A stretch of DNA of 56,253 bases, the filler included, from Sphacelaria rigidula (lineage: Eukaryota): the NCBI GenBank assembly GCA_964200075.2. It is 6 parts of 6 records of this genome, joined end to end, with 100 filler letters (N's around TTAATTAATTAA, not from the genome) between each part and the next. Parts side by side here need not be neighbours in the genome. Positions count along the whole stretch, not along the records: positions 1 to 9,293 come from CAXNAA020008825.1; 5 more parts are not named here. One strand, given 5' to 3'. The notes under the pieces were generated by a model that saw nothing but the letters and a program-made list of their open reading frames with translations, searched no databases and was not told the origin of the DNA. A program made the translations under genes and the position numbers. This document shows, one piece after another, positions 1 to 56,253 of the stretch (the first letter of the stretch is position 1; each line of letters opens with the position of its first letter).

Positions 1-135
1 GGGGGGGTGTTGACCCATTCCACAATACCAACATGTTTGGCATGCACCGGGGGGGCGTACTCATTTGTTGCACCGGGAGAGAGAGCCGTTGATACCTTGA
101 GACTACTACCACGGATTTGTCCCGAGGAAAGAGTC

Positions 136-656
136 GGGGGTGTTAAACTCATGGTCTTGCATGCCGTTGTCATGAGACCATTGATCTCGCCTCCCTACGA
201 AGCCGGGACGGAGCACGCCGGGTTTTCGCCGGACCAGGCTCGCAATCGCCAAGCGCCAAGCGCCGTGATGTGTTCGGCGAGTTGCATGAGGGATACTCTG
301 TGAATTCTGCTAAGATTGCGCGGCCCGAAGCGTACTGTTGTCTTGCATATGGATGATAACCTTCAGTGAGTTGCTTCATTTTTTGGCATCGCTTCTTCCA
401 GAGACGGTCACGTTTTACACGGCCTCGTGGGTGTCTCACAACATATAACACTACGTAGTACGATCGTCCGCTTAGCGCGGAGTTGCGGTTCTCCACCCCT
501 CACAAGATGATGTAGCTGGACCATGATCATTTTTCGAGAAAAATAACTCATGCGAAAACGAGAAGAAACTGGTAAGCTGGTTGCCCATCTTGCGCAGTGA
601 GTGGCGTGTTTTGCAGCATCGTTGCTAACCGACGCCGACCCTTAGAAGGAAGGGGG
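136..656 (-). mobile_element. Longest copy of the C-tract-associated non-coding repeat (family A)
   Basis: The reverse complement aligns by eye with 37121-37400 (AGGGT.GG.GTCGGTT...GGCAACCAG...GTGAG.CACCC), with 56120-56253, and with 8727-9255 (...CCCGGCGTGCTCCGTCCCGGCTT.GTAGGG...ATGAGT). G runs flank it on both sides. Confidence 0.75.
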
Positions 657-4000: not shown

Positions 4001-7000
4001 ATCGGCGCAGCTAAAAACGATGATGTTATTGTACTGCGTTGAGTATCCAGTGCGTGTCATATCGTGGCATGAGAGTATGTTCCGAGATGATTTTTTTCGG
4101 AGATGCGGTGGAATCACGTATGGCAACTTTGATACGCACGGTCAAGCGTGCACTGGAAGTGCTGCGAGATGACATTGGGCTTGTCAGCAGCTCCATCATA
4201 GGAGATGACTTCGGAGCCGATTGTCACATACAACGAGCACAGGCGCAAGTATCCAACAGGAACTAGGCTACGACGCCTTTCCTCGATTAAATCCCTGATG
4301 GTGATCGTGTACTTTTGCAGTTGGGAAAAAAAAACTGCCAGATATTGGACAAAAAATAGTCTTGTCGGGATTCGAACTCGTAACCTGTGTAATTGGAGGC
4401 ACGTGCATCAGTTGGACCACCAGGGCGCAGCGGTGTCACATAAAATGTGCCCGGCTGGGCCCAAGTCAGGAAGGTTTTCACCGAAATTTTACCAGGATCT
4501 CCTGCACGCAAGTACGTACAACATTTCTGGGGATGCCGCAATTTCACCCTTTTTTCACGGAGTTATGACTTTCCCTCAGTTTTTGCTGAAATTTCAAATC
4601 GCTCCAACTTTCTGTTTTTTTTTTCTTGGCATCCCGAGAAATGTTGTGCGTGTTGATGATGAAAATTCCATGTCAAAATTTCAGCGCCTAACTCCTCAAA
4701 TTTAGCATCGCCTGATCCGAAAACCTGTGAAGTCATTGTCAGTTGACCCAGCTGGCCCAGCTCGTACGTATTCCTCGAGTCTCCAGATGGCCCTCTCCCG
4801 CCAGTGACTGCTTTATTTCCCCCCCTTGGAAGAAGGATGAAATCTTACCCAACACTTACCCCGCCACCGGGTTCACATACCGATTACCCGGAGGCTCGGT
4901 CAGACTGTCTCGTGGAAGTTATGTCGGGTAGGCGCCTCGAGCGTGCGCAAGCTTTGTTCAAGGCAGAGTAGGGGTCCGGCCCACTAAAACCCTCCATCAA
5001 CTTGGTGCAGTGTACGCTTCGCCATGCTCTTGAGAGCTTCGGCCCTAGTAGCCCTGACTACTGTTACTTACTGTATCCAGCGAAAGATCAGGGTCGTACA
5101 CATTGGTAGAGCCGAACTTTTGAAGTATATACCCGAGTTCCCAAAATTTTGTCACGTCGAACGCGAGGCTAGTAAGGGTGACAGTTGCACGGTGGGATCA
5201 CTTCAAGCAAACCGCTATAATCGGTTGAACGAGCTGCTGACGCAACAGCAAAAGTGGTGTTTGTGCTGGACCATAAACCAACAAACTGACACTCGTCGTT
5301 GCAAGCCCGAGGCGACGCAAGTGATACACGCAGTGACGGTCGTGAGTCTCTGAGAAAATAAGGAATTTGAGGATTGAGAGTAGGGCCAGGGATGAGGCGT
5401 AAGGCTAGCTTCCACGGAAACGTATGGTCAGTGTTCCAGTTTTGTTCACTTTAGTCCTTCTGTTCTATCTGTGTCCGTTCGTATTCTCCATTTATTGAGT
5501 TTCCTTGAGCGAGCGAGTGTTTCCGTTTTGTACACCTCGAGTATGTCTATCTTGTGGGTCATGACCTGACGACGGCTGTATTTGTAGAGGATCAGTTGAT
5601 GTGCAACAATGAACCAATCACTGCATCAATCAATTGATCAATCTACACACCTCATCCTCTCTCCACACCTACAAACCTCCCCTTGAACAGCCCGAGTCCT
5701 CGAGTCCTCGAGTGTTTGTGCCTGTCTTGTGAAGTGACCCCGCGGGTGCAATGTTCCCACTCGCTGGTCGACGCCGGCAGCGAAATTTGCCGTGTAGCAC
5801 CTTCCCCCTGCAAACTTGAAAATCGAAACATTGCATGTCCGATGGTCGAATGGTGTTCTCATCAATGGCCGGGTTGTGAAGCCACGTCAACAAACCACGG
5901 GACTCCAGGCGTTGCGCTATTTCTTGCACTGTAGGCGTTGTTGTCATTCACTCGTTCATGACGGGTTTTCGTTTTTGACGGTTCTGAGAGTTTTCGGACG
6001 GTTTTGCTGAAAGTTTTAAATTTGGTCGAGCTCAGACAAGCTGCGCATGTGAGGAATCAGGGTCATGTGTGAAGGTGCCTTTTATCGCGAACCAGTGGTG
6101 TGTACGAGCTGGGCCAGCCTAGAGGCTGCATGAAAGTTTGCGGGCGGATGCGCCGGGCAATATTTGGAGTTAGACCCTGAAATTCGGTAGGGATAATGCA
6201 CAGGGCATTATCAAAATCGGGAGGAAGCACATGAAGTTTTTTTTTTTCGTGAGTTAAGGGCGTTTTGCTGAAACCTGGACACTGATTATTGCCCTTAACT
6301 CACGAAAAAAAAAAACTATGAAGAAAAAAATTAAGGCCCATTTTTTTTTCTATCCGGCACTCTTTTGTGGTCCTCCGTGCTAACTTTTAGATCAGAATTC
6401 TCGAACTTGAGCTTAAACATTGAGATAAGGCCTAACAGCGATGTACATTTCTTCTCAAAACTCCACTAAAAACACGAAAAAAATGAAAAAAAAATGAAGT
6501 AAAAATTAAAGAGATAACAAGCTGTTTTTATTTATTTCTATTATGCACTAGCGGTTCACCACACGAAATTTTATGGAACAACTGTCAAAAACTGAGGCGC
6601 GATATCCAGATATAGGGCATCTAGTGCCTCTGCTCGTAATATATCGATTTTAGTACAGAAACTTATGTGCGCCATATCTCGAGATAGATAACGAATTAGG
6701 TGAAGGTGAAGGTATCTGTTGTCTCCCCTTGCTCCAGAGAATGTCCACACCGAAAATTCGTTGCCATCCGCTAAATGCATCGATCGGGGGTTCCATAGAG
6801 ATTTCAGTATAGGCGCTATCTCCCTTAGGTATAGGAATCACTAGACATGGGGTTTAATCAACTAGAAAATATGGGCCCAAAATTTTAAGCAGATGGGCAC
6901 CTTCACCTTGATTAGACGATTAATACGATATGCCGATCACGGCCCAACTCGTCTGTGTCGATGAGATATTGCTTTTCGAGCTTACATCCGTTTGAAGGCT

Positions 7001-8549
7001 GGCCCAGCTCGTATAACTATGGTACTCAATTAGCGGTGTGTGAAACGTGATGTTTGTGATGTTTTTGCCTCGTGGCTGTGTATGTGACTCCTCTGCCACG
7101 CATTTCCCCGATTTGTGGGCGGCTAGTGATTCGCATCGTCCGTGTGCAGTTCTGCAGCGTGATGACCAAGTTCTACCTTGCTGTCGGTGTTCCTGGTATT
7201 ATTGCCCTCGGTTTGTTGATTTTCAGTATCACGATCAGGAGCAGTCCACTCCCAAGGACGACGTTAGAGGAGCGGTCACGTCAGGTATGCACCGTCATTC
7301 ACGCTTAACGGTTTCTGTGGTTGTATATCGGTCGATGTTGTGGAGGCCCCGCTGAGTGACACCGATATCTACAATGTATATGTTGACAATGTATATGTTG
7401 ACTCGTGACATGCACGTTGGTGTCGATTCCCATGACAATTTGTCCCCGCTATAGCGTAAGTTCATGAACGCGTTACATTAAATGTTTTGTTGAATCCGCG
7501 GAGAAAATGCTATATTTGAGGTTGCTGAGCCACACTTGGTCCTAGTGGTGAAGATTATGACGGTAGGCACCTCATATCGAGTACGTTCCCCAATGGCTAA
7601 CAAAGCACACATGAATATTTCCGTTGTCGCTCTCGCGTCATGTCGTTGCTTGGCAGAGCATCGAAGGGTTTTCCACGGCGATCATGGTTGTGATCGCCGT
7701 GTGCTTCTTGCCGGCTTCTTACGCCATTTTCGTGGTGAAGGAGAGGGCTGTCAAGGCCAAACACCAACAGGCGGGTAGATTTGATTCCTGATTGTGTGGA
7801 TTACCTCGTGGTGTATGTCGGTTCATTTGCCATGGAATCTGTGATGTCCAGTTGTATAGTCATGAAACCCCGCATCTCAACGCCTTATTTTGTTTCGATC
7901 TGGTGGTGGTTACAAGTATTTGGGGCAGAACTTCCGCCCCAGTTGGTCGAGTGTGATCTGCGAAACGTCGTCCGAAGTAAGCGCGATCACAGGATGAGTC
8001 ACGAGCCTGCACCCCTCAATTCGAATTGCGTGCCGTCTCGTGTTTACGTAGCGGCAGTACGGCTCGCGTCGTAGAGGTGTGCAGCGAAACGCCCCCGGGG
8101 CACTCGTGAGCGTGCACCTTCATTGCTTCAGGCACCACGATGAGTCAAATAGATCTACGAACTCATGTCAATCCCAAGTGGTGGTCTCATCTATCGACAC
8201 ACCACCACCGTAGAAGCAGTGCTGTCTCTGTGCCTTCGTCGATGGACTTCCCGCGTGATACCCGCGGTGCATTCATGCAATGACCCCGGCGGCAAGATTG
8301 CGCAGTTGATCCTCGCCCGAAACTCAAGCTCCGCTCTTCTCAATATCGCTTGTCGTAATCCAAAATGGCACCCACTGAAGACAATGCTGACCGTGCGTTT
8401 TACTTGATTCACATCAACGACAATCACGCAGATGATATCCGGCGTGGGCGTGGCGGCATACTGGGCGAGCACGTACGTGTTTGACATCCTGACGTATCTC
8501 GTGCCGTGCTCCGTGTTCCTCGGCCTCATCTACGCCTTCAATGTCCCAA
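1039..8549 (+). CDS. ABC transporter subfamily A (ABCA), internal exons of the second transmembrane half; partial gene
   Basis: Phase-consistent exons 1039-1279, 1788-2081, 3386-3667, 7227-7284, 7657-7770 and 8432-~8549. They give ...FKALVSKRTTYGLRDKKSMFFQLIVP..., VLVNASAVHAAPMFMNLVN, ITIRSSPLPRT and FLPASYAIFVVKERAVKAKHQQ|MISGVGVAAYWASTYVFD, all typical ABCA motifs. Confidence 0.9.
2526..2630 (+). repeat. Tandem duplication of about 53 bp (intronic)
   Basis: TACAATCTAAA.AAATGGCAGCAGGTCGGAAAAGCGTGCAGTGGTTTTGTT occurs twice in tandem. Confidence 0.85.
4351..4428 (-). other. tRNA-derived Pol III-like unit (possible SINE head or tRNA pseudogene)
   Basis: The minus strand has an A-box-like TGGTCCAACTGA, a B-box GAGTTCGAATCCC and a T6 run. 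I could not form a clean cloverleaf acceptor stem. Confidence 0.4.
4812..5048 (+). mobile_element. Interspersed repeat of about 240 bp with a Helitron-like 3' end
   Basis: Homologous to 40281-40519. It ends in a short palindrome GCTCT-TG-AGAGC, then 8 nt, then CTAG|T. Confidence 0.55.
6105..7011. mobile_element. Tc1/mariner-type MITE (about 907 bp)
   Basis: TIR CGAGCTGGGCCAGCCT...AGGCTGGCCCAGCTCG with TA on both sides, and an internal inverted repeat at ~6236-6317. The same terminus occurs at 4751-4764 and 46792-46862. Confidence 0.8.
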
Positions 8550-8716: not shown

Positions 8717-9293
8717 TCCCCCCTCGCCGTGGCTGTACCTGGAAGTGGCCATACCGGAAAATAAAGCAACTCATTGTAGGCTGCCATCCATATGCAAGAT
8801 AACCAGCAGGCTTCGGGCCGAACAAAATCAGCAGGATGCAGCTCATCCTTTATGCGACTCGCCTGGCACACCACGACGCTTCGCGCTCGGTGATTGAGTA
8901 CGAGCCCGGTCCGGACTAATGCCGAGATAGCCCCCTCCACGAAAAAGTGCACCGGGGATCGTCCGACAAACCGGCTGCGATCCCATTATTGGGCTCGTTT
9001 GCAGCAATTTCGCCCCCATGGGAGGCGTGTAGTAGTCCGAAATCAGCTATATCGCCCAAATGAGTCGCGTCGTGCAGCACGACACCAGCTCAAACAGCAT
9101 TTATGATCATCGTCTCCGCGCACGTTTTTGGCCGGTTCAGGGGGGGGCTATCTCGGCAACAGTCTCCGGCAAAACCCGGCGTGCTCCGTCCCGGCTTTGT
9201 AGGGATGCGAGATCAATGGTGTTGTGACTATGCTGTGCATGATCATGAGTACCCCGACCCCCCCCCCCCCCCCCCCACCCCCACCACCCAACC
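8717..9293 (+). mobile_element. Family A copy, shortened at a C tract, interrupted by a MITE and ending ATGAGTACCCC-(C)n
   Basis: Aligns to 136-430 (minus strand) once 8914-9168 is removed. Confidence 0.75.
8914..9164. mobile_element. MITE family M1 (GAC...GTC termini, 4-bp TSD)
   Basis: TIR GACTAATGCCGAGATAGCCCCC / GGGGGCTATCTCGGCAACAGTC with TSD TCCG (8910-8913 and 9165-9168). A second copy lies at 35149-35396. Confidence 0.85.
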
Positions 9294-11272: not shown

Positions 11273-12991
11273 GAGCGACTATTCGGAGACCACAGAGCTC
11301 CAAGCTCCATGCGAGAAGGGCAAGGTCGGTGGGACGATCGACGAGGGGAGCACACAATAGCATAGTTCTGGTGGACGATTCTTGTGTCTTGATGCATCAA
11401 CTACGCACCAGCTCCCAGAGACTAGCACGACTGTTTGGGCGCGATCGCGGTCTGTTTGCCCGGCCCATTTCAACAATGGCACAGCGATATGACTAGTAAA
11501 TGTTGTCCATGCGGAGGGGGCGGTGCAGACTGCATGTTGCGATCAAATTCATATCATACGATGATGCTACAGCGCAGCAGAGCTCCGCCCGCTGATTGCG
11601 AAGAACCGCACCCCCAGTAAAACCACGTTAGTGTCGCTGGTACGTTGAAAAAAACTCTCGGATTGATCCCATGTTATGCGATGACAAGTACTGCGACTTG
11701 AAGTATTGTAGCGGCTTGCCTGCGCGTCGCACGCCAAAATTGTGCGGAACATGGGGTCGCATCATGATATCGAGCTACTCTCAGACCTAGGATGCCTTGT
11801 ATGGTGCAAACTTCGAAGAACTAGCTACTGCAGTTGGCTGAGAGTCGACGGCCCGGTACGACCCGGTTTCCGTACATTGTAACGACGCGTGCGTCGTGCT
11901 CGCCGCGATTTTTCTTCGTCGAACCGGTCTATTAGTGCTAGTATTATATGCGAGCGCCAAAAATGCGGCATCCCGCGGGCACTTCGCTCTTCAAGCGGTG
12001 CAAAAGACGGAAATCAGCAGAACGATGTATGCCATGACTACACCCAATTATAGGTTAAACGTTCACTAAGTAGAGCAGCAGCTTGCGTAGGACGCATACT
12101 CGTAGCCGTTCTAGGCGAGACCGATTTTTCAATACCATATTCTGGCGACTTTTCCAGCCGCTCCCTGTGTTTTCCTGCGTTCTGTTCGATATACTATGTC
12201 AAAAATATGAAAGTAGGAGGGAGTCGCCGTTTCCCAGTTTTGCTGACGGTGTTCGATGAGGAAATTCCCGCTCCCGGTTTGATTTCACGAAATACATGCC
12301 GACACCATGTTCCTGCACATGGTTTGGAGAATCAATGGGGATGCCTTGAAAAACGCGGGGAAATACGGTAGGTGTAGGCAACGAGATGATGAAAAACGAG
12401 ATCGTGTTGTGCCAAACCAATGAAGCGACGCGGTGTACCAAGGATATACCGAGTACCATAGTACAAACAGATCGAAGGGCGTCTGGATCGTTTGTCCTAC
12501 GGCTACCTATTGTGTCGAATCAATCGACATCCCCATCCATCTACACCCCAAACGACGTCGAAACGCCATTGCCGCGCCCTGACCCGTTTTCTTCCACTCC
12601 CCTGGTCCGTCCGTCCGTCTGTCCGTCGAGCGTGCACACACGAACTTCTCTGCAGGCAAACATTCGCTGCCGACAATTTATTGTATCCCAGTTCGCCGCC
12701 AACCCGATGGCTCGTTGCTTCTGCTACTGTGATGGAAATAATGAGAACGGACATCATCAACCCCTCGAACCAGCTAGCATGTACGTGGACAAGCCATCGC
12801 TCATGTACATGCCGGCCGGTACAACAAACTGGTAGCTTTCCCTATTGATAGCCCACCCTTGCATACGCGGGGACAGGTATTCAGAGAGAAGGCGATCGAC
12901 TGAGAAAAACGTCTCTGGGTATCTTCGTGTCCTGGCATTTCGTTGTGTGGGCGTCTTGCTGAGAGAGAATTCAACAACATCCATATTTTAC

Positions 12992-13545
12992 TGCCGTATC
13001 AGGCAGCCTATTCCTCGACTACATTCCTTGCCTCCCTACCCTCACCCATCCCCCCCCATAACCCGACCCAACACCCACTCACGCCCGCTCCGCGTACTGT
13101 GCACTACGGTATACACGCGTAAATCGCGCGAGTCTTTCGACCATATCCGCGCAAATCTTTCGACCGTACCTAACCAGAGAATCTTCATTTCTCGGTCCGC
13201 GTTCTGTGTACTTCGATATACTTGCGTGGATCGCGCAAGTCTTCGAGAAATCAACAAGAACCACATCCGCCGCCGTATCAGGCAGTCTGTTCCTCGACTA
13301 CATTCCTTGCCCCCCTACCCTCACCCATCCCCCTCATAGCCCGACCCAACACCCACCCATCCCCGCTCCGCGTACTGTGTACTACGGTATACTCGCGTGT
13401 ATCGCGCGATTCTTTCGACCGTATCCGCGTGAATCTTTCGACCGTATCCGCGTGAATCTTTCGACCGTACCTAACAAGAGAATCTTCGTTTCTCGGACCG
13501 TGTACTGTGTACTTCGATATACTTGCGTGGATCGCGCAAATCTTT
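12992..13545 (+). repeat. Tandem duplication of about 280 bp with internal (GAATCTTTCGACCGTATCCGC)-like subrepeats
   Basis: Units start at ~12992 and ~13271 (GCCGTATCAGGCAG.CT.TTCCTCGACTACATTCCTTGC). A degenerate third unit runs to ~13660. Confidence 0.85.
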
Positions 13546-16031
13546 CTTCGACTCTACCTGACCAGTCATTATTCATTCACAGGCCCAACCAACACCCACC
13601 CAGCCGCGGTTCGCTCGCCGTGTACTCTGGTCCTTGCGCGAATTGCGCGAATCTTTTCACTGCACAAGACGCTCTCCATCGACCCAACCCTCGATACACG
13701 AAGCTTCACGATACCCCAAGCGCAGCAGCATCTCCTATCAGCCACTGTCTGCAACGACCCCCTTTAGGCCGCCTTTCAGTCGCAGTTTGGTCATCGACAG
13801 CAGCATAGGCGCACAGCCAACTCTTGCCGCCGCGCTCGCCCTGGGTGATCGAGATACAAAACAAAAACTGGCTCTCCGACCCCAAACAAGTAGCAAGGCC
13901 CACGCTGTCGACGACAACAGCCACGAACTCACACGCGAAGCTAGTCTCTACCGACAGCACTGCTTGTCGTACATGCCGTGCTTACATTGTTGTGAGCATA
14001 CGGCTCCGAGGTGCTGTTGTACGGTCTTTACAACGATACAAACTCACTCCCGAAAAGAAGCGACACCTGGCCAGCACTTGGGGCACTACAGTTGTAGTGC
14101 TGCCGTCAAATGACATTCTCACTAGTGCACCGACAACACCATGTCCAAAGCAACAGTACCCGAATCGAAATTGTCTAGCACCACCGACATCCGTTCACGA
14201 GGGAAGGCGTGCTCAGCCAAGTGGCTTTCCTCCTCCCGCCCCTCACGCTCCACGTCCGCATACCGTCCAACCGCGTGCGAAGCCTTGACTTTACCACACT
14301 CCAGGGTATTGACCCTCACGACCAACGACAACGAAACTGCCCGCACCCACACGACAGTACCTGTCACTCTGCTGCGGACGTTCCAGGAAGAGTGTGAGCG
14401 AGACTGCTCCTTATACTTGTACGTATCGACTGCATCGTTCAGTTTCCAGCAAAGCAACACCGCATCCCCGAGAACCACGTGCATGTCTACGTCTACGTCT
14501 ATCCCTGTGTGCGGTCGCAGCAAGGCTTGAACATCTCACGACCGGAAGAGCTCCAGATGTCCTCAACAAACAATCGAAAAATGAAAAACCGAGCACAGGG
14601 ATAACCCAATAACGCTTCCATCGTAAGAGCACCGGAGGCGGGGGAAGGAACGAGGAACCTCGATACCATTTACACCAAAACGGCGGGAGATCTTTCGATG
14701 GCGCCAAGTACGGAGTTGTAGCCACCTCAAAGAAAAAAACGAACCTACGTCAACATGACGGCGGAGGTGCTCACTAGCAAATCAAAGACGTCGCTTGCCT
14801 AAAAAACGCGTGTGTACCCTTACGCCTCGCACTGAAACCGCTCATAGCAAGGCGCAAGCAAGTCAGTACAGCAAACGAGGCAGTCGTCCCCTGGAACGAC
14901 GGGAAAGAAAAACCAACACACAAACAAAACTATAGTGCCGGTATATAGGACATGAAGATATGCGCTAGGAGCTGCACGATACTGCCGCAGCTTGCCCAGC
15001 ACCGGAAACGTCCCCCCAAGTCTTGAATGGTGCAAAGTGTTCTAGGGCTCCCGTATGATCGACACGGACAAATCAAATCTCCAACAGCCACGCAAGCGAT
15101 CATATTTGCGTCCTGGCGAAAAACGAAAGAATGTCTGTAGGAGACAAAAACGGCCGTTAGAGCAAGCATAGAGTAGCTGAGACCGTATATCGGGCTTCCT
15201 GCCAAGCCCACCTTACAGCTCTGCAACAGCTACAACTTCACTCATTAGGCAAAGTACAGGAACCCGTCATGACCCACACCAAACTATGCACAACATACCA
15301 ACACGGTGCCAAACGTGGTCTGTGCACGCCTTGCCGCGGGGTTTATCCGTTTCTCGTTCAAGCCTGAACTTCTGTGTGGAGCCATCCGCAAGACAAAATG
15401 GTTTTGGCAGAACAGCGTTCAAGAAAAAACGACAAAATGTGCCCAGCTGGTCGAAGATCATGCAGCCGACGCCTGTTTGGTGACAGGCAAAGGTCGAGTC
15501 TGCCAGCGTGTGTTCCCCTACCCATTGCATCCGCCTCAGGGCTGCTGACGTGTGGCGCGTCGCTGGCCCTGCCTGTCTCTCCTAGAGATGGACGAGGCGT
15601 GAGCATTTGGGGGGGAACGACGGAAGAGGCAGGCAGGCCATATGACCATCGTCGACTCGCAGGTATCTGTAGCAACTATCGTGTGCCCAAGAACAAGAGG
15701 CATGCACTGTGCGTACCCAAATAAACCCATGGGCACCTCCATGGCTATGAACGGGACAAAAACAAAGCAGGTGCGCCGTGTGTCTGTGTCTGCAGAGGGC
15801 TCAAGCGGCATGGGAGACGACGGAGATCCGTCTCCATAAGCGTACATGGATGCACATGCAGTGGTATCCTCGTGTCCTAGCGAACAGTTCTGTATCACAT
15901 GCAGCATCCTTGGCGGAGCAAGATACCACAATGAAGTCGCAAAACACACACCAAGGTCAAGCAAAAGTCAAGACAAACTTCCCAGAGTGGTCCAAAGAAC
16001 CGTGATGAGCTACTACAGTATCTCCCAATTC

Positions 16032-18786: not shown

Positions 18787-18872
18787 CCGGGGCGCCCCGC
18801 CCCCAAAGGGATGTGGTGGCAATGGGCACCCCACCAAGGACAGCCAACAATGGGTCCCCCCCCCCCCCCCCC
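18787..18872 (+). mobile_element. Degenerate short copy (family B) of the C-tract repeat end module
   Basis: AAAGGGATG.GGTGGCAATGGGCA...AAGG...ACAATGGGTC-(C)n matches the reverse complement of 39540-39604. Confidence 0.5.
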
Positions 18873-18906: not shown

Positions 18907-21900
18907 GTTCTGCCGCAAACACCAGGCACGGGCTGGCACCGACCCGAAGACTGTGCAGTCGCTCTCAAGGGGCACGATTCACCGCCGCTACCGCCATCCG
19001 CAGTATCCTTGGCGTCCGCCCTCACACAATTCAGCCTTTGTGAGGTATGCCGTTCGAGCATAGAGGAAGTGGGTGGTCGCGCGACTGTAACCTGGATTCA
19101 CACGAAGATCCCAACTTTGATCGCTGCACGAAGTAAGTCACTTCTGGTCCCTCCCCTTTGTTCACGTCTCCGCGTTCTCAGGAACATATCCGAATCTGAA
19201 CTCAAATCTGTTGGGTTCGTCTCGTTACCGGACAGCTGTAGTAATGCCCTGTCTTTACCTGGATCGCAAGCCGTTTTCATCCTCTCACATGCGGCCTTTC
19301 TCAGCATCGAGGACTTCGCGGAAACCACTCTGTGACATCCAGAGCAAAATGCAAAATACATCGATTAACCCTCACTATACGTGCCCTTGATCTCCGCTTC
19401 GTGAAACACCAGGTTCTCGGCTCTCTGAGACTTGAGCAAGAAACCGATGGCAGGTTCGCGTTTATAGGATATCGCGATCAGAAAAAAGAGGGTTTGCGTG
19501 GCAGAGATAGGGACGCATTCCGCTGTCTGCTGGAAGTGGCGTGGGATATGGCTGCAGGTGGAGTCTTCGTGAGGCGGTTCGGCATGGAGAGCGACAAGAA
19601 GTTTCCGCGGTAAGCAACGATAGTTCAAAGCCAAAACACTCTCTCCATCTTCTACATGTACCGGTAGGTATGCCCAGCATTCTGGTTATAGTCAAGCAGG
19701 TTGGGGTTGGGTCAGGGCTTCGTTCAAAAGATGCGGTTGTGGTCAAATTCCGTTCCACTTGCTTCATTGTTTCTTGTAAACCGAACGTTTGCGTCTAGCC
19801 AACCATAAACCGGTAAACTCGTTTAAGCTCGTGAATCTGACAAATTCGATAAATGTTAATTTTGCAGAACAGCTCCGGTATCGATCGAACACAGGGGGAA
19901 AAGATAGAAGCGTGGCCCCCGGGGGGTGAGTGGGTAGGGTATCGTTGCCTACACTGAGTTTTGTTTCTCGTTTTTGATTTTCGTTTACTCGGTGTCTCGG
20001 GTCTGCCTCCTTCCTCTATATTAACCCTTTCGCGAGTTATATCCAGCGGGCTCGTCCTTATTGTTCACCTCGAGTACGTCTAGCCCGTGACCATGACCGG
20101 ATCCCTCGGAGATCGGTGATGATGCGGTAATCAACGAATCAATTGACCAATCGATAAGTTTATCATGAAATTCTACAGGCTAGCACTTTCTCCATTCCAA
20201 TTTCACCTCGACATCACCATAGTACAGTATATGAAGCGAACTCTGCACATGGCCGTTCAACATGATTTCCCACCCCGTTGTAGGTTGAAGTTACGAGCAT
20301 TGGGCGTTCGCGGCTTTTCTATCGCTCAGCTCCCAGTCACACTGGAAGACATCGACGCCGTGTGGGAACGAGCGGACGCCGTGAAGTCATCCGAAGCGTC
20401 AGATCGGAGCCATGACGAAGGCGAAACAGGTTCTGCTTCGGACGAAGGAATTCTAAGCGACGACGCCGGATCTTCTCTCCACGGGTCGACGGCGCTGTCG
20501 TCGACACTCCCTACCGAGATTCGTTCAGATGGACCTACCGCACGTTCCGGTTCGCGTGACGTCGTCGACTCAACAGCTTCAGGGTCGACGCCGCCAGAAG
20601 AAAACGGATACAGGCAAAAAAACCAGGGCACCGGTAGCCGCACGTCTGATGGGGGCGATTGGCCAAATTCCGAACCTTTCGGTGAGGTTGACAGATCCCA
20701 GGCAGGGACCAACGCAGCCGAGGTTCTCTCCTCGGCACCTGCCGATCCCCCCGCAATCGATTGCTCAACTCCCGGAGACGAACCCGCAGGCGGTGGGAGT
20801 ACTAACGCTAACGATTCCAGCCTGACGGTCGTCGTCCCCCCAGCGCGAGTGCAAGGGCGAGATTGCGCGGGCGACGGGGGTAAGGTAGGAATTAGATCGG
20901 TGCGACAGGCAGACGCGGGTAACGTCGGGGTTGATACAACAGCCGCACAACGAAGTCGAGGACACTTGTCCCCTTTGCAGAAGATTGACGACAGGGGTGG
21001 TGACGCCGTCGAAGGTGACGACTTCTCGGGAGGTGTGGAAGCCGGAAACGAAGACACCAGCGGTGCCGACGGAAGTGTGTGTCGTACTCGCAACAAGAGC
21101 ATGCAGGGTATGACGGGAGAAGAATCTACTGTAGCTGAAAATGACTCAACGGAAAGTTCGAAGGCCAGAGGCGGGGAAGAAGTCGCTGGCAAACTTTCTT
21201 TGTCAGCAACCTCACGCCGCGAGGGAGGGATTACCACAGGCGATGGGACAGCTTCGGATAATTTGGACGAGACGGTGCCGGTCGTGGCACGCGACGAAGA
21301 GAACGGACCAGAAGAAATCTCAAGAGACAGTCCGGTGGGGGATAGGGTGGAAAATGGCAAAATGAGAGTACGCGAGACCGTTGCAGTATCAGATGCCGCA
21401 AAATCGTCCGACAAAGTCACACCGCTTCCCACAGCAACTGCAATCGACGGCACCACTGTTAGCAGTGACGTTGATGCTGCAGCAGTGGTTGACCCTGTTG
21501 CAAAGAGTGGCAAAGGTATTTATGTCCAGAATACGCTTCTAGGAAGGGGGTCTGAGCTGTCTCGAGATGGCGAAGACGTCGACACTTCAGCTGATGGTCG
21601 AAACTCCACAATTTCGTCAGCGAAAAAGAACAGGGTTGGAATTACGCCTGCTGCAGGCGACGCCGAGCAACCTGCGGCTGGCGAGTACGATCTCCTCGCA
21701 GATATTACAAACGATCAGTTGGAACTCATGCCCCACCGTGCCGTGAATCAAGCACCTGAAGTGCTAGAAACACCTTGCACCCTACCCGCCGAGAGGCAAC
21801 GGGAAGATCAGACGAGGTATGGCGACGCCTGCAGGGGCACACCGGCTGGACATGGCACAATGAGACGTCGGGAGGGAGAAAAGCACGATCATTTAACTTC

Positions 21901-24287
21901 TAGTTCTGGCTCCAACTATCAGCAAGTAGACGATACTGCAGTAACTACAGGTGCTAGAGGGGGCGACCAAAGAGAACGGAAAGGTGATGAAGCCGTCTAT
22001 GTGACCGCGATGGCTGAGAACGCAAGGAACACAGCGGGAAACGATGATATCGAAGCGCACCATAGTAGTTTTCACCAGCCAGCGGACTTTCCCGTAGACG
22101 AAATTGCCCACGTCATCGAGGAGGCTCCTGCCACCAGTTGTCCGGACGTTTGTAGGATCCCTCGTTTCTTTGAAGCCTCAGTCGTGCTCCTTACGGCCAA
22201 GGCGGACGAGCAAGACATCAAGTGCGTCGTTGAGTGCGGAATCGAGACGACTCGTGGAATTAATCCCTCCAAAGGTGTGGCACTATCTCCGGAAACTCTA
22301 GACATCCCCGAGACCAATGGGCGTATAGACAGCGCAACCACGGTGAAGCACCAGGCGCCGAGCAGTTGTTGGCGGGGCGCATACTGCGTTTACAAATTTT
22401 ACGCGCAAGAGGTCCTGTCGCCTTCAAAGGTCGATTTAGAGGATGACGACGCCCAAGATCGTCTGGAGAACCTCCTCCAGACTTTCGACCTGAGCTTGGA
22501 AGATGTGCTCGGACGTTTCCCCGTGGGAACAGACTTAGCTCGCAGTAGCGCTGTGATCGACGCTTTCACCGAGAGCATCTACCATCTGCAGCGCTCGTGT
22601 GAATCCAGCGCCAGTGGAACGGCAGAAGACAAACCATTCAATAGGACTAGAAGCATCCGAACGGCAGTGGAAATAGCCCTGCTTGGCACACCAGAATGGG
22701 TGGAGGTACACGTCGCCGTCGAAAACGGTCGCGTTCTCGAGGTCAACATCGTCAAGAAGTCAGAAGCCGGTGAGTAGGGCACGGGCCACAGGTACGTACT
22801 TGGATTCAAAGTACCGGGGAAAAACTTGCCAATATTTGGCACCGACGACGTTTTTTAAGACCGTTTCTGGCGACAACCCCCCCCCCCCCGACGATTTTAG
22901 CCCAACGGGATGAAATGGTGGTGTTATTTACATACGATTCATGTCACGGTAGGTGTTACACATTTGGGCCCGGATGTTTCTCACTGAGGGTCTCCTACAG
23001 TTGGAGCGACACAAGAATATGGGTAAGGACATTCCTGCTTTAGAACAAGTTCGATCCTATTGGAAAGCTAATCGTGGCGTGCTCCCACATATTTCATAAC
23101 TCATTTCTTGGATGTGATAAAGGTTTCCTAGAACTCCAAGCCTGATAAATGTTTTTGCGTGCCCCTACCGTGGCGTGACCCATCCGGTGTCGCTGATATT
23201 ATTTGCCACGTTGGTGCGTGTCAAACAAACGTGCAAGTTTTACATCGCTTCCATCGAATCTCTGTCTTGACCAGGCGATGCGGTTCTTGCGAGTATAGCC
23301 TGCACGGAATCAAATCCATCGCGAGAGGAACTAAGGGATCATGTTTTAGCCAGCGGAGCACCCATGTCCGCAGTGGACGTTCTTCAGCGAGCAGGACTAT
23401 TAGATAGCGGAGTGGTCGGCCTTTCGTGTGTGTTTGCACAACTGGCCGAAGGGGCAAAAAATCAACGACCCGAGTGCACTGACGCGCATGACGTAGTGAA
23501 TGGGAAAATACCAGGGGTGTATCCCGGGAAGAAGCAGGTTTGCTTGGACGTCGATGGTGTGCTCGAAACATTCGAGGTTAAGGTCAGAGTAGAGGGGGCA
23601 GCGGCCAGCCTGGATGTACAACTCCACCGCAGTATCTCAGCCGCAAACATGAAGAAAGTCGCTGGTATGCGGATTTCATGCATACAGGAGTGCGCGGACA
23701 GACGGGAAGTACAACTCTCGAGGTCCAACTCGGCATTGACGCCAGTGCATTCCGCATTGCCTGAAAAAATGACCATCGATTCTAGTCGTGAAGGACTTGA
23801 TGATGCAAGCATAAACGATAGACAAGCAAATTCAGACAACGTGGGTACTGCGACAAGCGGGGTGGCTGATGAGAATGAGCTGCACGTGGGTAGCATAGTC
23901 GAGGCGCGTTTCAGAGGCAAGGGTGACTGGTTCCGTGGTGTCGTCACAGAGGTGCATCACCACAAAAACGGGAAGGCAACAGTTCATCCTACCATCGACA
24001 TTGAATATGACGATGGGGATATTGAGAAAATGATACCGCGCGTGCGGGTGAGACTTCCGGGCCAAAAGCAGCCCAGGTTGCTAAACGAGGGAGATGAGGT
24101 GGAAGTGAAGCGGGGCAAGCGGATAGGGTTGGCGACCATTGTTTGCAGATGTACAAGCGAGGAGGGACGATACGACTTGAGGCTGCTGGATAAATCCGAC
24201 GCTGTTATCGAAAGAGTGCCTAGAAGTGCTATCATGGCCTTGCACAACTGGCCACCTCCAAAGGCAAAGCTTCCCGGAGACAGATGA
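18907..24287 (+). CDS. 3' part of a large protein with a low-complexity linker and C-terminal Tudor/Agenet-like domain(s)
   Basis: Phase-consistent exons 18907-19044, 19343-19609, 20284-22769 and 23275-24287 (stop). The last exon has LHVGSIVEARFRGKGDWFRGVVTEV...IDIEYDDGDIEKMIPRVRVR and a second, weaker barrel LNEGDEVEVKRG. Confidence 0.8.
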
Positions 24288-25364
24288 CATATGAAGTTTG
24301 TTGACGTTTTAGGTACAGATCACAGTGCCGGGGGAAAGTACGCTGCAATGATGCTTGCAGTATTATTTTATCCTCATAGATAGAACTGTGATGTGCCCAG
24401 AAATAAATTTCGGGGCATCGCGAGCACCGTCTAGACGCGCGGCCGGGAGTGGTCGCAAACGTCCAAATAAAGAAATAAGAACCAATACATTCCCAATTTG
24501 AGTTCGCATTCAGGGGAAAGCCTCGCGGGGGAAGGGAAGCTTCATGTGATTTGGTGTGCGGTTGTGGGGAAGGTTAGAGAGTACCTTGTGTGTCATAGTA
24601 TATCATCGCGAGCAGCACAAGACCATGCCGGTTTAAAGTTCCCGAGAATCGTCCGAAGTGTTGACACACGAGTGTTGGTAGTTAGAGCAAAGGGTACATG
24701 GAGAGACCTGGACAAACAGGCTTCGTGGCACGCATACGGCTATGTATTTGATGGATGCGGGAAGATTAATGTGTGATGTATACTGAAAATCCCAATTTCA
24801 CGAAGTGAATTTGGTTTCTGCGCCGAGTGAAAAATCGACTTACCGGTTTTTTTCGACTCGATTTTTGCGACTTCATTTTCGCGACTCGATTTTTTAGACT
24901 TTTTTCGCTAGATTTGTCAAGGGCAAAACCCCTGTTGATTTCGTTTTTTGGGGAAAAGCTTTGTCGAACAAGAACCAAACGCATCTTGCTTCAAGGGGCA
25001 CCTGGACACACAGCAGTTGATGCTGCTTACCTAGTATCATCCTCCAAATCGAAGACTTGAGTGAGAGCGCCCAGCGTAGAGCTGCTTGACGCGACCACTG
25101 CGTTCTATTACGGACCCTTCCCCACGTACCCGACAAGGGAGCAACATCCCCGTACAGACAATAGCAATGCTAGCGGATCCTATGTCCTGACTGTCTGGCA
25201 ACCGACAAGGTGGTTATGTTAGTGTCTTTCTAGCGATATCAACTTACAGCGCACTGGTGTAGACTTTGCAGGTGAATATTTCGGCGATTGCCTCACCCGC
25301 AGTTCGCCCAGATGTTGCGGATTTTTTTCACGATCTCACCGAGTAATATTACATATATTTTTAC

Positions 25365-25445
25365 ATGTGGAAATGTACCAGACCCTGCATTATAAGTGGA
25401 ATTGTCCCAGACCCTGCATTATATGTGGAAATGTACCAGACCATG
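25365..25445 (+). repeat. 29-bp minisatellite, about 3 copies
   Basis: ATGTGGAAATGTACCAGACCCTGCATTAT repeated. Confidence 0.8.
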
Positions 25446-34349: not shown

Positions 34350-34416
34350 CGTTCTCATGTGTTGCTTGCCTTAGTCGTTTGATCATTGACCATGCATCCC
34401 TTTCGAGACGGAGCAA
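34350..34416 (-). mobile_element. Family B short copy (67 bp) with a 14-bp TSD
   Basis: Flanked by identical GGGGGTTTGGGGGG at 34336-34349 and 34417-34430. Confidence 0.8.
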
Positions 34417-37050: not shown

Positions 37051-37470
37051 TCCCCCCCCAAACGTGGTTGCCTGGTGCGGCGAGAACCCGGCGTGCTCCG
37101 TCCTGGCTTTGTAAGGGCGGACCCCCGATAGGGTTGGAGTCGGTTGGCGATGGCGCTAAAAAACACGCCCCTCATTGCGTAAGCTAGGCAACCAGGTTAC
37201 CGTATTGTTTTGCGCGCTTACTTTTTTTTTGCGGCTACCGTGATTGTAGTCGAGCTAGATCATGTTGTGCGGTGTGGAGAACCTCAGCTCCGCACAATAG
37301 GGATGATCGTACCATGTAGTGGTGAGGCACCCATGAGGCAGTGTGTAAGCGTGGCTGTCTCTCGAAGTGGCGATACCAGAGCATAAAGCAACTCATTCTG
37401 TTTTTGCTGATAGCGGTATGCCGTGTGTAGGCTAGACATGCCCTGTCTGTTGTGCTTCCATGACGATGCT
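37051..37470 (+). mobile_element. Family A copy (5' portion), cut by the contig end
   Basis: Starts after C8, carries the CCCGGCGTGCTCCGTCC module, then sequence homologous to 365-656 (minus strand). Confidence 0.7.
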
Positions 37471-37570: not shown

Positions 37571-37657
37571 GAGTTGCTTTATTGTCTGGTATCGCCACTT
37601 CCAGAGACAGCTATGGCTTATGCACTGCCTCATGGGCGGCGGGGGATGGGGGGCGGA
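37571..37657 (-). mobile_element. Family A fragment at a contig start
   Basis: Minus strand reads CCCATGAGGCAGTGCATAAGCCATAGCTGTCTCTGGAAGTGGCGATACCAGAC..., preceded by a C-rich tract. Confidence 0.75.
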
Positions 37658-38515: not shown

Positions 38516-41500
38516 GTGATTAACTGCACTTCGTTATCCTGTCCCCAGGTTCCAGGGTCATCTCCAGTAGGACATACCCTTTCCGTGCAGTCGTACCCCG
38601 CATACCCATCATCGCACAAACACCTGATCGAGAACGGGATCAACAGCAGCACAGAACCGCCAAGAGCATATCAGGTTAGCTTCTGAAATAGATTCAACAA
38701 CTCAGTTGCCTCAACGCACTGGCCTGCGCAGCAGCACCTACATAAGCGATGCGCCAAGTGGAGCTCCCCGGCCACTTCTATCTCTGTACCGCCTGTCGCT
38801 CGTACCATAGGCGACCTCTCCTGGCACTTTTGGAGCTGGCGAGAGACAGTGTTCTTGTGCTTTCTGTACACAAACCCCCCCGAGCCTCCTCACTCCCTTG
38901 TGTCCTTACCTGTGTTGACTTTTCCATCACTTCTCTTACCCGTATACTCGATGAGCATCCCAGGTAGAGCCTTCGTTTGGGTCGTCCCCGTATGTGTAGT
39001 CGGTGGCGTCTCCGTTGCTCTCCGCCGCAAGAGCAAGCTCGGCCATTGTCACGCACCTATCGCCGGAGCAATCCACGGCGCAGCAGCCAGTTGTTCTCAT
39101 CTTCAGCACGTCGTGGAGTTACCACAGTCGTGAGGAAAAGAGTACGTGGTACTTGGCGCTGTAAACTCCTTAGATGAGGATACGGAGACCCACATACGGC
39201 CACATGCAACCGTCTAATCGTCTGGCACGAGAACAGCCACAACACTGATAAGCTCGATTCGATTCGAGTGGTAAAGCACGTAAACCGATCACTTCTAACG
39301 ACTGTTTAATTTAGCAGCACCGTCTAACCTTCCGTGGGTGTGACAGGCGTCGTCAGTGCCACCCGCACATATCATATACTCGCACGCTGCTCCATGAAAC
39401 AGCCCGCCGCACTCGCACTGTCCTGTCTCGCGGTTACACAGCCCCCCGTCGGAGCACTCCGTTCGCACGTCATGTGCCTTTTCGTCTTCGCTACAGCCGA
39501 AACGGTTGAAGCGGACGAGACAGGGGGGAGGGGGGAGGGTACTCATTTGTTGCTTGCCTTAGTCGTTTGGCCATTGACCACGCATCCCTTTCGAGACGGA
39601 GCAAGGGGGGGCATTTGCTTCGAACCCCAGCTGCAGGAGACGGCCAATTAAGAGAGTGAACACAGCTAAACCTACTACTTGTGTCAGCGACGCTTTTCAC
39701 ACACCACGAAATGCGATGTATGTGGCGCGGCTATTCCGGGGAACGCAGCATTTGCATGGTGTAGGATCAGTATTTCACACCCTTCAGGGGGTGCGGCCGG
39801 CCCTTTGAGAGACGAGCTATTGCTCGTGCTCATTTATCTGCCTTCTTTCACTGCCTCGCACATCGTTGTAGATCCTGAACATCGCGTACGGCTAGTAGCA
39901 CTATTCTTGGCAACCGAGAAGGTTGGCCTCGGTGTTTTAACAGCCTGTCGTAAACCTGAAGTGAGTTTTGCTTCCAGTGCAGCAGCACGAACGTTCAGCT
40001 TCTGACAGCGTGAGTTGAGCCTTCTCATCCATTGCTCCTGTGGGTACTCCACGTTCGCTACCCGAAACCTCTTTTTCTTGGAAGTTTATATCGGTATATG
40101 TGCCACATTGCCTCCCGTTGCCACGCGTTTCCGTGGCTGGATATAGCTGTGCAACCTTGCCGTTACGAATTTCACGCAAACATTGTGAGCAGGGCAATCT
40201 TCTCCATATCCTATAACGTCCACTGTAGCTGCTAGCTCGAAGGTTTTCCGGTACGAAGCGAACCGTGAACAATGATGTACTATTTCGTTTCTCTCCTGAA
40301 AGTAAGGGAGAAACCTGACCCAACACTCACGCCGCGAACGAGTTCGTGTGCCGATTACACGGAGGCTCGGCTAGACCGATTCGCGGCAGTCATGTGGGGT
40401 AGGCGCCTCGAGCGTTCGCAAGCTTTGCTCAAGGTAGTGTGAGAGCCCGACCCACTGAAACCCTCGGTCAACTTGGCGCAGCGCACGCGCCGCACCACTC
40501 TGGAGAGCTTCGGCCCTAGTATATTTTACTATGTTGTACAAAGTACCACCTTGGGTAGCTGAACCAACTCGAGCCAAATGGGCAAGAACGCTGAGAGCAA
40601 TCCCCAGCAGTCCATCCATCGTGGCAGTCGCACGTAAAGTCGGTCTCATCGCATGAGCCATGTCCGCTGCACGCCACTTCGCCCGAACACCCGGCCGTTG
40701 TTGTTACCTGATACCCACAGTCTCCGCGAGTTCCCGGTCCGTTGTATCTTTTTCGATGACAAAGTTAAAAAATATCCGATTGCGATGGGATAGCGTGTAA
40801 ATAGTCAAGTCGTGTTCTGCTTTTAGGGCAGAGGTTTTTCTTACGCCATCGATCACGGGACTGGAGTATGTGCGTGTGATTCTATTCGCTGCTGTTTGTT
40901 TTCATGATGCCATTTTTTGTCTCCCCCTTCTTAAAGGGTGTATAATTCGTTCGCCGTTGACATGGCTCCACTTGAACGACACCGGCGAGTTGAAACCAAG
41001 ACCTGAACAAGGAACTTACGCTCGCTGAAGTCGGTGTACCCACCAGTATAGTATTCGACACCGCTTTGGATCTACGGTACTTTTGCGGCTGGAGCACCAC
41101 GCTGTGCTTTAGTCTACCAGTTCGACTCACCCATCACTGCTCGCGAAAATGTCATCGTTCGAGGAGAAGCACTGGCATACACCCTCGTGTGGGTCACATA
41201 TTCCCCGGTTGGAGCACTCCTCGTTCTCCTTTGTACCTTTAATAGATGTATGCCTGTACACACAAAAGGTCGGTGGTTATTCGAAGGCAAAGTGCAGCAC
41301 GCATGTTCGTGTTTTCCTTCTACACTGCGAGCGTGTCCCGTGCACATTGCACCAAGCGCTTCGGGGAGACGGCTATAGCGATCACGTTGGCATGTTTTGC
41401 AGGTGATCCCGCGGAGTATCTACGACGTATCCCTTGAGGTGCTCGATATCGTTCGGCAACAGTGGAACGCTTCGGATGCCTCAATTTGCGTCCTACTCTG

Positions 41501-44500
41501 TCATCCACTGCTTGTTCTGAGCTTGTCGTGGCGTTGTTCTCACCCGACAGCGTCAGAATCGTACACCGTGCTACCGTCGGCAGTGATGCTGAGCTCCGTC
41601 ACCGACCCGGCTGTGAGACCATTGTAAGACCACATGGGAGAGAGGGAGCCAAAATTCCCCAAGAATTCCACCTGAAAAAGTGCGATTGATCATATACGCG
41701 GTTGGAGCTTATCAAGTGTCAAGGTATTCAAGGGTTTCCAAGAAACGTTGGCAAATAATATCTCGTTTTCCCAGGGACACTTTCCACGATAGCTTCTCCC
41801 CCCCCAAAAATGGCTGGTCTGGGAAGGCAAAATCTACACGTAAATCGAGATGAAGAACGCCGAGCACAACGAGCAGCTGGGGATTCCCACGATTCGGTTC
41901 GTTTTCGCCAATGTCGCCCATGTAAGGTGCTTCATGCAGCCTGAAACCAAACATCAGGCGCTGTATGACTATTTTTTTCGTGACGGTCTTGGCCTAGTTT
42001 TGGGCGGGGGGGAGGCGTACTAATTTGTTGCTTGCCTTGGTCGTTTAACCATTGACCACGCATTCCGTTCGAGACGAAGCAGCTTGTTTCGGGAGGGGGG
42101 TCTATTGTAGAAAAACACCAGGATTCAAACCAAGCACGACCTATGATTGTTGCCATGTGTTGCTGTCACATTCAAACTTGTCTCACTTGAGGAGAACTCT
42201 CTTAGAACACAACGTTGACTTTGAAACAAGATGTACTATACATTCAGGAAACCGAACGGTAACTCATGAAAGTGCCTCGTCAGCTGATCACAAACCGCAC
42301 ACGCCCACCGAAGCGATTATCCATCAACCGTCGTAAATTCTGCATAAACATAATAAACCTTCCTCACCCCGTGCCCAACGAACCACCTTCGAGCCACAAA
42401 CGCCAACAATAATCACAACAACGACCCAAAGCGTCGTACAGTAGTTCGATGAGCATCCTCAATCCCAATAATGGCCAAACGTCGAGGACCAGATGGGCAT
42501 CTACCCTGTAGAAAACGGTGAAAAAAACAAACCATACATATATGTAGGTCTTCGTATCCTCCAAGACCCTGATACTCTATCCAACCACTCGGTGAATATT
42601 CTTCTCACACCCATATTGTCAGGGCTACCACGTCTGTTCCATGGACGATGGACAAGGATACTTGAATTACTGGCGTCGCGATCATGTCACAAAGTTTGCT
42701 GATATTGTAGATGACGCCGCACAACAATCCTCAACGGGGAGCTCAGCTGGTGTGCAGACGTGCGCATCAACAACTCGTTTAGACGCGGCGTGCAAATTTA
42801 AATGAGAAACCCACGTCAACTGCCTGAAGGGAGCCCATGAAAACCCCACAGACGATCGCAATTGCCAACGGCATAGAAAGAGAAAGTAGCGGAGAACATT
42901 TCCGATTTTGAGGTTATAACGCACAGTAGGTACCGTCAATTGATCCGATCACACACCTGTATAACGTTTATTGCCGATGTGTTACACGCTCCGCTTGAGG
43001 GGATGGAGAAAGTCACATCGACGCCCTGGAGGATAGAAATTGAGTGCAGGGCGCTCTCCACGTCCTCCTCGTCAGAATCGTACAATAGTGTTCTGGAAGC
43101 GTAACCTTCGTAGTACAGAACGAACGAACCCGCTGTGGCCTGACAGAGGCAATCGAGGAAAGAGTCATTGCAGAGAGTAGCGTCGTCAACACAGGTTCCT
43201 CATCGGGGACACATGTCGACTGTACAGGGGATACCGGCAAGAAGAGCCAGGAAGCTCTATGCTCACGCACTTCTGGCGTTTTCGGAAGGCGACAATGTTG
43301 CGGAAGTCGCAAGCTCCTCGCACAAGCACCAACCTTATGTATCGATTTCGCCGTATTTTCGTGTACTTCTCACGTGTATGCTCAGTTCGGCGGCAAGAAG
43401 CGGTGTGTTGCACAGCTCACGAATGAAAAAAACGTAGCCATTATTTCTGCTATAAACATGTAATATTGTGGTTCATCAGAAATTTTGTCGGAGCACAGCA
43501 GAAGATTTCCTCGGTGGTTGGCAGGGCAGCATTCCAAAATTTTGTCGGTGGCTGACAAGGGCGCATTCCACCCGACAGCTCGATATTTCGTTCACTTGAA
43601 ATTAGAGTGCGTTTGTTTCCCGTCGAGCTCTGCCAGAAACGTTAAAATTTCGTCCGAGCACAGCACGATTTTTTCTTGGTGGCTGACAGGGCAACATTCT
43701 CCCCGACAGCTCGCCATTCCGCTCACTCGAAAGTAGAGTACCTGGGAGCCTACTTGAATACGCTAATCTCCATCCTAACCCCGATGAAAGCGGACCGAAC
43801 TTCCGGGGAGCGACCGTGTTCTACGTGGTCAAAGGGTGCGTTGTTCTACGGGCGTCGGTGTGAGTAAAAACACGTTTCGGTGCCGCGTGCCGCGCGCACA
43901 AAAGTTCCCCTGCATCGCAAGGGAACCGGGTGTTATGAAAACCGAGAAAAAGCCCGCATGGCGATCCTGATTTCGGCGTCTGCGGGCAATTATCGTACGC
44001 ATCGCTCTTTTCAGGGTCAACTTTTGGGGCCACGGACACTTTCTATGATAGCCCCTCCCCCCTCAAGAAGTGGCTGATTTGGGGAGGTAAAAGTTACACG
44101 TAAATCGAAATTAGAAAATGCCGAGCACAACGAGCAGCTGGGGATTCCATTCCCACGCTTGGGTTCGTTATCGCCAACGTCTCCCATATGAGGCGTTTCA
44201 TGCAGCCTCAGAATACGAACCACCGGTAGAATGTGTTTTTACAGTCGGAATGTGTATCTTTCCTGGGTTTGAGTCAGAATTGGACCCGCGAGATTGTGGC
44301 GTGGATTACCGCAGAAGGTCCCGGTGATACAAGGACGACGGGTATTTATACGTGTGTTCAATGTGTACTTCCGTGAATATGCAACAAGCAGAGGGGGGCT
44401 TCGTGACACAGGAGGCTAGGGTTCCATTTCTACCTTTAGAGGGATTGCACGAGGAACGATCTACTTCAATGTATCCATCACACATCTTGGAATCGATCTA

Positions 44501-56083: not shown

Positions 56084-56253
56084 CCCCCCCCCCACCCACC
56101 CACCCACCCACCCCTCCACCCATGAGGCAGTGTTTAAGCCGTGGCTGTCGCTGGAAGTGGCGATACCAGAAAATGAAGCAACTCATTGTAGGCTGTCATC
56201 CAAATGCAAGATAATCAGTAGGCTTTGGGCTGGACAATCGTAGCAGGATGCGG
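56084..56253 (+). mobile_element. Family A copy after the C tract of an M2-like MITE terminus, cut by the contig end
   Basis: GGCACTTTCTACGATCG(C)n at 56067, then CCATGAGGCAGTGTTTAAGCCGTGGCTG..., matching 8727-8840. Confidence 0.75.

Follow-up and report, generated by a model that had tools for sequence, protein, structure and literature searches.

A C-tailed, non-coding brown-algal retroposon and its probable LINE partner in Sphacelaria rigidula

The window studied here is a stretch of 56,253 nucleotides from Sphacelaria rigidula, made of six contigs, each about 9.3 kb long, with N linkers between them, and taken from an assembly of 244 Mb in 27,214 contigs (GCA_964200075.2). Nine sites in it had been attributed, in a preliminary description, to one non-coding, retroposon-like family that targets C/G runs. 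What is this family, and which machinery moves it? The results point strongly to a pair of elements, a non-autonomous bipartite brown-algal retroposon and an autonomous LINE partner that encodes an APE endonuclease and a reverse transcriptase (RT) in a single ORF. Matched by description, they most likely correspond to RTEX-N1_Ec32 and RTEX-1/-2_Ec32, respectively.

Family sequence was found at all nine sites, spread over five of the six contigs, and the matches far exceed chance. The long-form pieces have E values between 1e-131 and 3e-17, and three of the short ones have values between 3e-15 and 2e-11. The boundaries needed revision, however, and the sites represent two things. Five are pieces of the retroposon; the other four, regarded until now as short variants of the long element, are 5'-truncated 3' ends, ~65 bp long, of a separate LINE. 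A tenth copy, a 13-nt insertion with its own duplication, had been overlooked. In the following list, reference positions are those of a 560-nt retroposon reference, which is followed by a C tail, and repeat A is a block of ~47 nt that occurs twice in it.

56..68, minus strand: extreme 3' end of the LINE, 13-nt insertion (read from the sequence)
136..641, minus strand: near-full retroposon with its C tail, reference 61-558 (504 nt aligned to the consensus at 83.5%, E 1e-131)
8726..8913, plus strand: 5'-truncated retroposon, first piece, reference 288-475 (87%, E 1e-54)
8914..9164, no strand given: unrelated 251-bp TIR element with 4-bp duplication TCCG, inside repeat A of copy 8726-9293
9165..9293, plus strand: 3' piece of the copy begun at 8726, reference 472-560 plus C tail (90%, E 1e-23)
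18794..18872, plus strand: LINE 3' end at the start of a contig, degraded or poorly assembled (C tail of 17)
34350..34415, minus strand: partner LINE 3' end with the final ~20 codons, stop codon and C tail (matches a natural LINE copy at 85%, E 4e-13)
37071..37397, plus strand: 5' part of a full-length retroposon, reference 1-337 (repeat A, head, core; 86%, E 9e-97)
37571..37636, minus strand: 5'-truncated retroposon from reference 269 on, interrupted by the contig start (91%, E 3e-17)
39539..39603, minus strand: partner LINE 3' end, between C runs (89%, E 3e-15)
42016..42081, minus strand: partner LINE 3' end, at the C-rich end of a TIR-like repeat (41774-42010; 82%, E 2e-11)
56117..56253, plus strand: 5'-truncated retroposon, start at reference 267, cut by the window end (93%, E 2e-44)

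The copy at 136..641 starts at the LINE-like head described below, without the 5' copy of repeat A. The small insertion at 56..68 is followed by a C run (49-55) and surrounded by a duplication of ~10 nt. For the site delimited earlier as 8717-9293, a truncated copy was confirmed (8726-8913 plus 9165-9252), but it is split by the TIR element; after the match in its 3' piece comes a run of 19 C (9258-9276), and the C tail reaches the contig end. Similarly, the site given as 37051-37470 matches the retroposon as far as 37397, with a C run ahead of it (37052-37059), but the 3' part and tail are missing and 37398-37470 had no match among 177 loci. The copy at 56117..56253 is preceded by a C-rich run (56084-56116). 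As for the LINE ends, 34350..34415 has a 15-nt target-site duplication and a tblastn match to residues 1342-1359 of the LINE protein P0001, 39539..39603 matches residues 1342-1360 at 95% by tblastn, and the local alignment of 18794-18858 outscored 2000 of 2000 shuffles. Of the ten internal contig ends, four fall inside a family copy or next to one (9293, 18787, 37571, and 37470, within 75 nt), and such copies help explain assembly breaks at C runs.

Other features were recorded along the window. The TIR element is ~250 bp long and non-coding, and its copies at 8914-9164 and 35149-35396 are 87% alike, with ends GACT..GCCGAGATAGCCCC and 4-bp duplications TCCG and TGGC, respectively. A Copia-type gag fragment (35261-36070, minus strand; PF14223, E 1e-7) ends under the second of them, and a frame at 48403-49038, plus strand, resembles Copia RT/RNase H by eye, with no Pfam match at E 0.01. 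Segments 28512-28745, 41774-42010 and 44036-44208, which are 76-82% alike, form a repeat family with C-run/G-run ends like GATAGCCCCCC; retroposon and LINE ends insert into its C runs at 42016, probably at 56084, and at loci L071 and L079. Two dispersed repeats were seen, one of 80 bp (6941-7020 and 46783-46862, 80% alike) and one of ~260 bp (4807-5065 and 40279-40535, 77% alike, 7-C run near one end), as well as local tandem repeats (12965-13656, unit ~280 bp; 25361-25448, unit 29; 2521-2626, unit 53; 43480-43739, unit 130-165) and two long imperfect palindromes (26655-26837 and 6235-6317). A host gene at 20147-24287, plus strand, is made of long exons, and a Tudor/Agenet-like domain was recognised in one of them (E 5e-5). 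Its exon 23271-24284 gave 17 matches, the sole NCBI-named one being a Scytosiphon protein, in keeping with a brown-algal host, and no usable match in the ESM Atlas.

A genome search with 136-656 returned 5,316 first-look candidates, 40 of which were scored, at 77-79% identity, and a search with the LINE end 39538-39604 returned 1,454. The loci sampled were the best matches to the queries, with no random draw; 30 of them, once aligned, provided the 3' end and the reference of the retroposon. Its copies are old, with a mean identity to the consensus of 88.5% (range 79.6-91.6%). The sequence is also abundant in sequence sets of four organism labels (5,315 to 128,615 contig pieces at 85% identity or more), each of which covers 28 of the 29 bins of one retroposon copy. 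It is therefore not local to the Sphacelaria genome.

The retroposon is ~570 bp long (full copies, 554-567 nt) and non-coding. It consists, in order, of repeat A, a 46-nt LINE-like head, a body of ~350 nt, repeat A again, a LINE-like tail and the C run. In the 30 aligned loci its 3' end is fixed, and reads ATGAGTAC and then the C run, so that the fixed ATGAGT-like end first described holds; so does the absence of poly(A), of terminal inverted repeats and of an ORF, the longest stop-free stretch of the consensus being 56 codons. Repeat A occupies reference 1-46 and 467-512, and 16 of 42 near-full copies begin with it. In a tree of 42 cores, which was star-like, these A-headed copies were scattered and formed no clade. 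A subfamily was rejected on this ground, and repeat A is taken as the normal full-length start. We infer that copies headed by A have their full length, their 5' repeat A having been left by an old head-to-tail insertion.

Both the head and the tail resemble the LINE. From reference ~55, the 46 nt of the head are 76-86% identical to the extreme 5' end of the LINE in six of 12 upstream stretches; the remaining six had no head match at E below 0.05, and the body matched none of the 12. Over its last 50 nt, the tail has 80% identity with the LINE end (41/51 columns), and over 60 nt 75% (46/61). Read in frame, it (..VNGLMTTACK..) is nearer to the Ectocarpus family P0099 (..VNGVTAKACKT) than to the resident LINE (..VNGQTTKASNK). 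A second LINE family of the P0004/P0099 type was not found here among 150 candidates scored out of 2,075, and a search of the Sphacelaria genome with the P0099-family C-terminus gave only 34-45% matches. Because the tail is nearer to a family that was not found in the genome, its true donor may have been lost from it.

The word "structured", used for the element at the outset, applies to part of it. Relative to shuffles, the consensus folded with a z score of -2.2 (reverse strand, -2.6), the signal coming mainly from positions 121-240 (z -4.2 and -3.5), but repeat A, head and tail folded no better than shuffles (head, z +0.6 and -0.7).

The partner was reached by walking upstream from the LINE ends. 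Four of the 30 loci from the LINE-end search extend upstream into common sequence, and five loci run at least 1.5 kb into an RT frame. The stretches fetched contain endonuclease, RT (RVT_1, E 9e-10) and Cys/His-knuckle fragments, and all LINE copies seen in the Sphacelaria genome are broken. An intact relative, P0001, is 1,360 aa long and 80% identical to the RT piece; like P0002, it carries Exo_endo_phos and RVT_1 within one ORF. The C-terminus of the two proteins, ..NGAPSRKG(C/R)VVNGQMTKASNK, is the peptide encoded by the short module. An RT-encoding element that ends in the same 3' module, which the preliminary description proposed to look for, thus exists. P0002 clusters with Ectocarpus proteins, one such cluster ending in the same peptide, and Ectocarpus proteins are 47-78% identical to the RT piece. 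All NCBI-named matches of the partner RT at E below 1e-30 are from Ectocarpus, which leads in 13 of 14 named matches.

The ATGAGT motif contains the LINE stop codon. Among 33 LINE ends, 25 have a readable stop, and in 17 of these 25 the distance from stop to C run is 5 nt; a run of five or more C follows 68 of 80 LINE ends. Since the stop codon stands 5 nt before the C run, the shared tail is coding sequence, the last ~20 codons of the LINE, whose 3' UTR is about 5 nt long; the derivation from a LINE 3' UTR that had been suggested is not borne out. On the 5' side, the UTR of the LINE (L146-L151, L153 and L157) is built of ~62-bp tandem units, about 6 to over 20 per copy. Residues 1-165 of P0001 and P0002, ahead of the endonuclease, have no Pfam match and are conserved in the LINE copies of the genome; they are possibly a fused or vestigial ORF1. 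A PDB search retrieved proteins of L1 and R2 alone and so gives no placement of the clade. Through its Ectocarpus homologs, the partner would be of the RTE-X kind, the label used in PMC12477816. This label is provisional, because RTEX elements, unlike RTE, usually have a real ORF1 (PMC3905857), whereas the brown-algal elements have one ORF.

To characterise the insertions, hits to the 3' end were collected from 157 loci and the window: 204 hits gave 192 after deduplication, of which 168 had enough flank (24 dropped). Target-site duplications were scored by a strict test (at least 10 nt, at least 4 non-C bases, at most 1 mismatch; control, swapped flanks), which by design excludes pure-C duplications. 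They were present in 11 of 88 retroposon copies (control 1.4%) and 20 of 80 LINE ends (control 2.0%). We assume that decay with copy age accounts for the 77 retroposon copies and 60 LINE ends that failed the test. The duplications are 10-23 nt long and variable, and 24 of 31, both elements taken together, begin with three or more C. The C fraction in the 12 nt after the end was 0.66 and 0.79 for the two elements, and 0.50 in the 12 nt before the start, versus a background of 0.25. For 32 of the 168 insertions there is a family tail in the 40 nt upstream, versus 3.5%. Across the 88 retroposon copies, 5' starts vary and the 3' end is fixed. Target-primed reverse transcription at C runs is supported by this fixed 3' end, by the C run and by duplications above control. 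The initial proposal of such priming at C/G runs therefore stands, and the enrichment of C-run flanks and of duplications suggested as its check was observed.

The 5' joints were inspected in 35 truncations, full-length starts and starts favoured by the query (455-470) being left out. Two window copies do start at an internal CCC, between CACCC and ATGAGG, as had been noticed, but this is the case near internal CCC for only 3 of the 35 (8% expected). C microhomology at the 5' joints, also put forward, is therefore not supported. In copies with a resolved duplication, the 5' joint comes after its non-C part. Ten of the 35 starts fall at 252-277, versus 2.1 expected (p about 1e-3, with a rough scanning correction and post hoc), and two window copies, which start at 267 and 269, are inside this hot spot. 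It is located at the 3' foot of a predicted stem closing positions 103-252, where RT may stall.

A mechanism can be proposed on these grounds. By extension of established LINE biology, the LINE protein would bind the tail RNA and nick the G-rich strand at a G run; the C tail of the RNA would pair with the freed G end and prime reverse transcription, a scheme that would be L1 poly(A)/T-tract priming with the bases swapped. A second nick 5-13 nt beyond the run would generate the duplication, and reverse transcription would often halt at the 3' foot of the predicted stem domain. As every insertion would add a new C run, copies come to stand in head-to-tail stacks. Read-through into the flank of the donor copy is the probable source of the C tail, and, more speculatively, Pol II might transcribe both elements from the shared head.

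The match of its head to the LINE's own 5' end favours reading the retroposon as a bipartite derivative of a LINE over reading it as a Pol III SINE. That it would be a true Pol III SINE, with a head from tRNA or another small RNA, is very improbable, even though it has internal T runs and hairpins and the Ectocarpus authors leave SINE status open (PMC12477816). No tRNA was detected in any of 12 loci scanned and no A or B box on either consensus strand, and Rfam had no match to the window at gathering score or to seven loci at E up to 5. Pol III stops at T runs, and two such runs (8-9 T, positions 133 and 153) would terminate it. With no head from tRNA, 5S, 7SL or snRNA found, the SINE-like nature supposed at first is not supported in the strict sense. 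The ~47-nt direct repeat near both ends of the 16 A-headed copies might instead evoke a non-autonomous Penelope-like (Chlamys-type) or LTR/TRIM-like element, repeat A being a pseudo-LTR, and N-terminal EN+ Penelope-like elements favour microsatellites (PMC8557442). This is exceedingly unlikely: the ends are shared with an APE-RT LINE and with no GIY-YIG/RT element, the repeat is not terminal on the 3' side, the duplications vary over 10-23 nt, and Chlamys-1 of Ectocarpus is described with an (A)n end. Both the Penelope/Chlamys and the LTR readings were rejected on the LINE homology of the two ends.

There is also a small chance that the retroposon is a separate, undescribed non-autonomous family, which uses the same C-tailed LINE machinery but has a different body and an origin apart from RTEX-N1_Ec32. 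The two were compared by description only, the reference measures 560 nt plus tail versus 604-607 published, the A...A direct repeat is absent from the supplement rows on RTEX-N1_Ec32 in PMC12477816, and Ectocarpus is reported to have a second such family, RTEX-N2. Against this, five traits match together (size, C-rich duplication, tandem habit, tail and weak 5' homology), and the abundance of the retroposon in the four organism sets shows that it is not restricted to this genome.

The bipartite retroposon thus compares best with RTEX-N1_Ec32 (a/b) of Ectocarpus sp. 7, an element of 604-607 bp with a C-rich duplication and a tandem habit, a 60-bp tail 83% like RTEX-1/-2 and weak 5' homology to RTEX-2 (PMC12477816). 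Both are brown-algal, ~600 bp long, non-coding, present in thousands of copies and found in tandems, with C-rich duplications, a short 3' end in common with a (C)n-tailed LINE and weak 5' homology to it. The first impression of an undescribed family is accordingly not supported, with the reserve that the likeness is one of descriptions. The differences are the genome, the greater age of the Sphacelaria copies and a tail 75-80% identical to the resident LINE versus 83%; the text and rows covered of the published description mention no internal direct repeat, no truncation hot spot and no derivation of the tail from coding sequence. RTEX-1/-2_Ec32 have one EN-RT ORF, a (C)n 3' end and C-rich duplications (PMC12477816), all of which the partner LINE shares; unlike them, it is seen only as broken copies, and its 5' UTR carries the variable ~62-bp array. 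RTEX-1 was also reported in Saccharina (PMC4421812). The most abundant unclassified repeat of Ectocarpus, "Sower", amounts to about 2.5 Mb (PMC3145265) and RTEX-N1_Ec32 to 2.48 Mb (PMC12477816). This like genome share suggests that they are one family, although the name Sower is absent from the text and five supplements of PMC12477816.

Bipartite non-autonomous LINEs are known as Bov-A, RTESINE, RIME and NARTc, and the sources listed in the part of PMC5786205 covered are only RTE, Ingi, Vingi and R2. Like the retroposon, they retain both ends of a LINE and lack an ORF. In contrast to their UTR-derived parts, the 3' part in Sphacelaria is coding sequence; none of the LINE stretches compared matches the body, and the head comes after a copy of repeat A. 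An HDV-like self-cleaving ribozyme is common at the 5' end of RTE, Ingi and R2; no such fold was found in the consensus or in six LINE heads with a home-made descriptor run without positive control, nor any Rfam match. The parallel with L1 and Alu concerns priming. Their poly(A) tail primes at T tracts, and here likewise a homopolymer tail would pair with a nicked homopolymer target, with 10-20-nt duplications and 5' truncation in both systems. Here, however, C/G replaces A/T, the C tail is not one that polyadenylation could supply, and the 3' sequence common to both elements is of the stringent recognition type (PMC3747384).

While this kind of family is already published, the LINE 5' head on the retroposon, the ~47-nt direct repeat and the truncation hot spot are new here, relative to the parts of the published sources covered. 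A literature search, with most subscription journals beyond its scope, brought up no study of how poly(C)-tailed LINEs work. A bolder reading, to which we give a low probability, is that the 46-nt head common to both elements is a new RNA module that sets or processes the 5' end, and that the LINE reads a packaging signal in its own last codons and primes on poly(G) with a poly(C) tail obtained by read-through. A possible H-type pseudoknot was seen by eye in the head (GCGTCG/CGACGC with GTGGC/GCCAC); the folding z scores of the head and the lack of an Rfam match speak against such a module. If true, this reading would make RTE-X the fifth LINE clade with bipartite parasites, with 5' and 3' signals of its own. 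Priming by non-poly(A) retrotransposons would have a clean test case in a LINE that combines a poly(C) tail with a G-run target and carries a recognition signal in its last codons.
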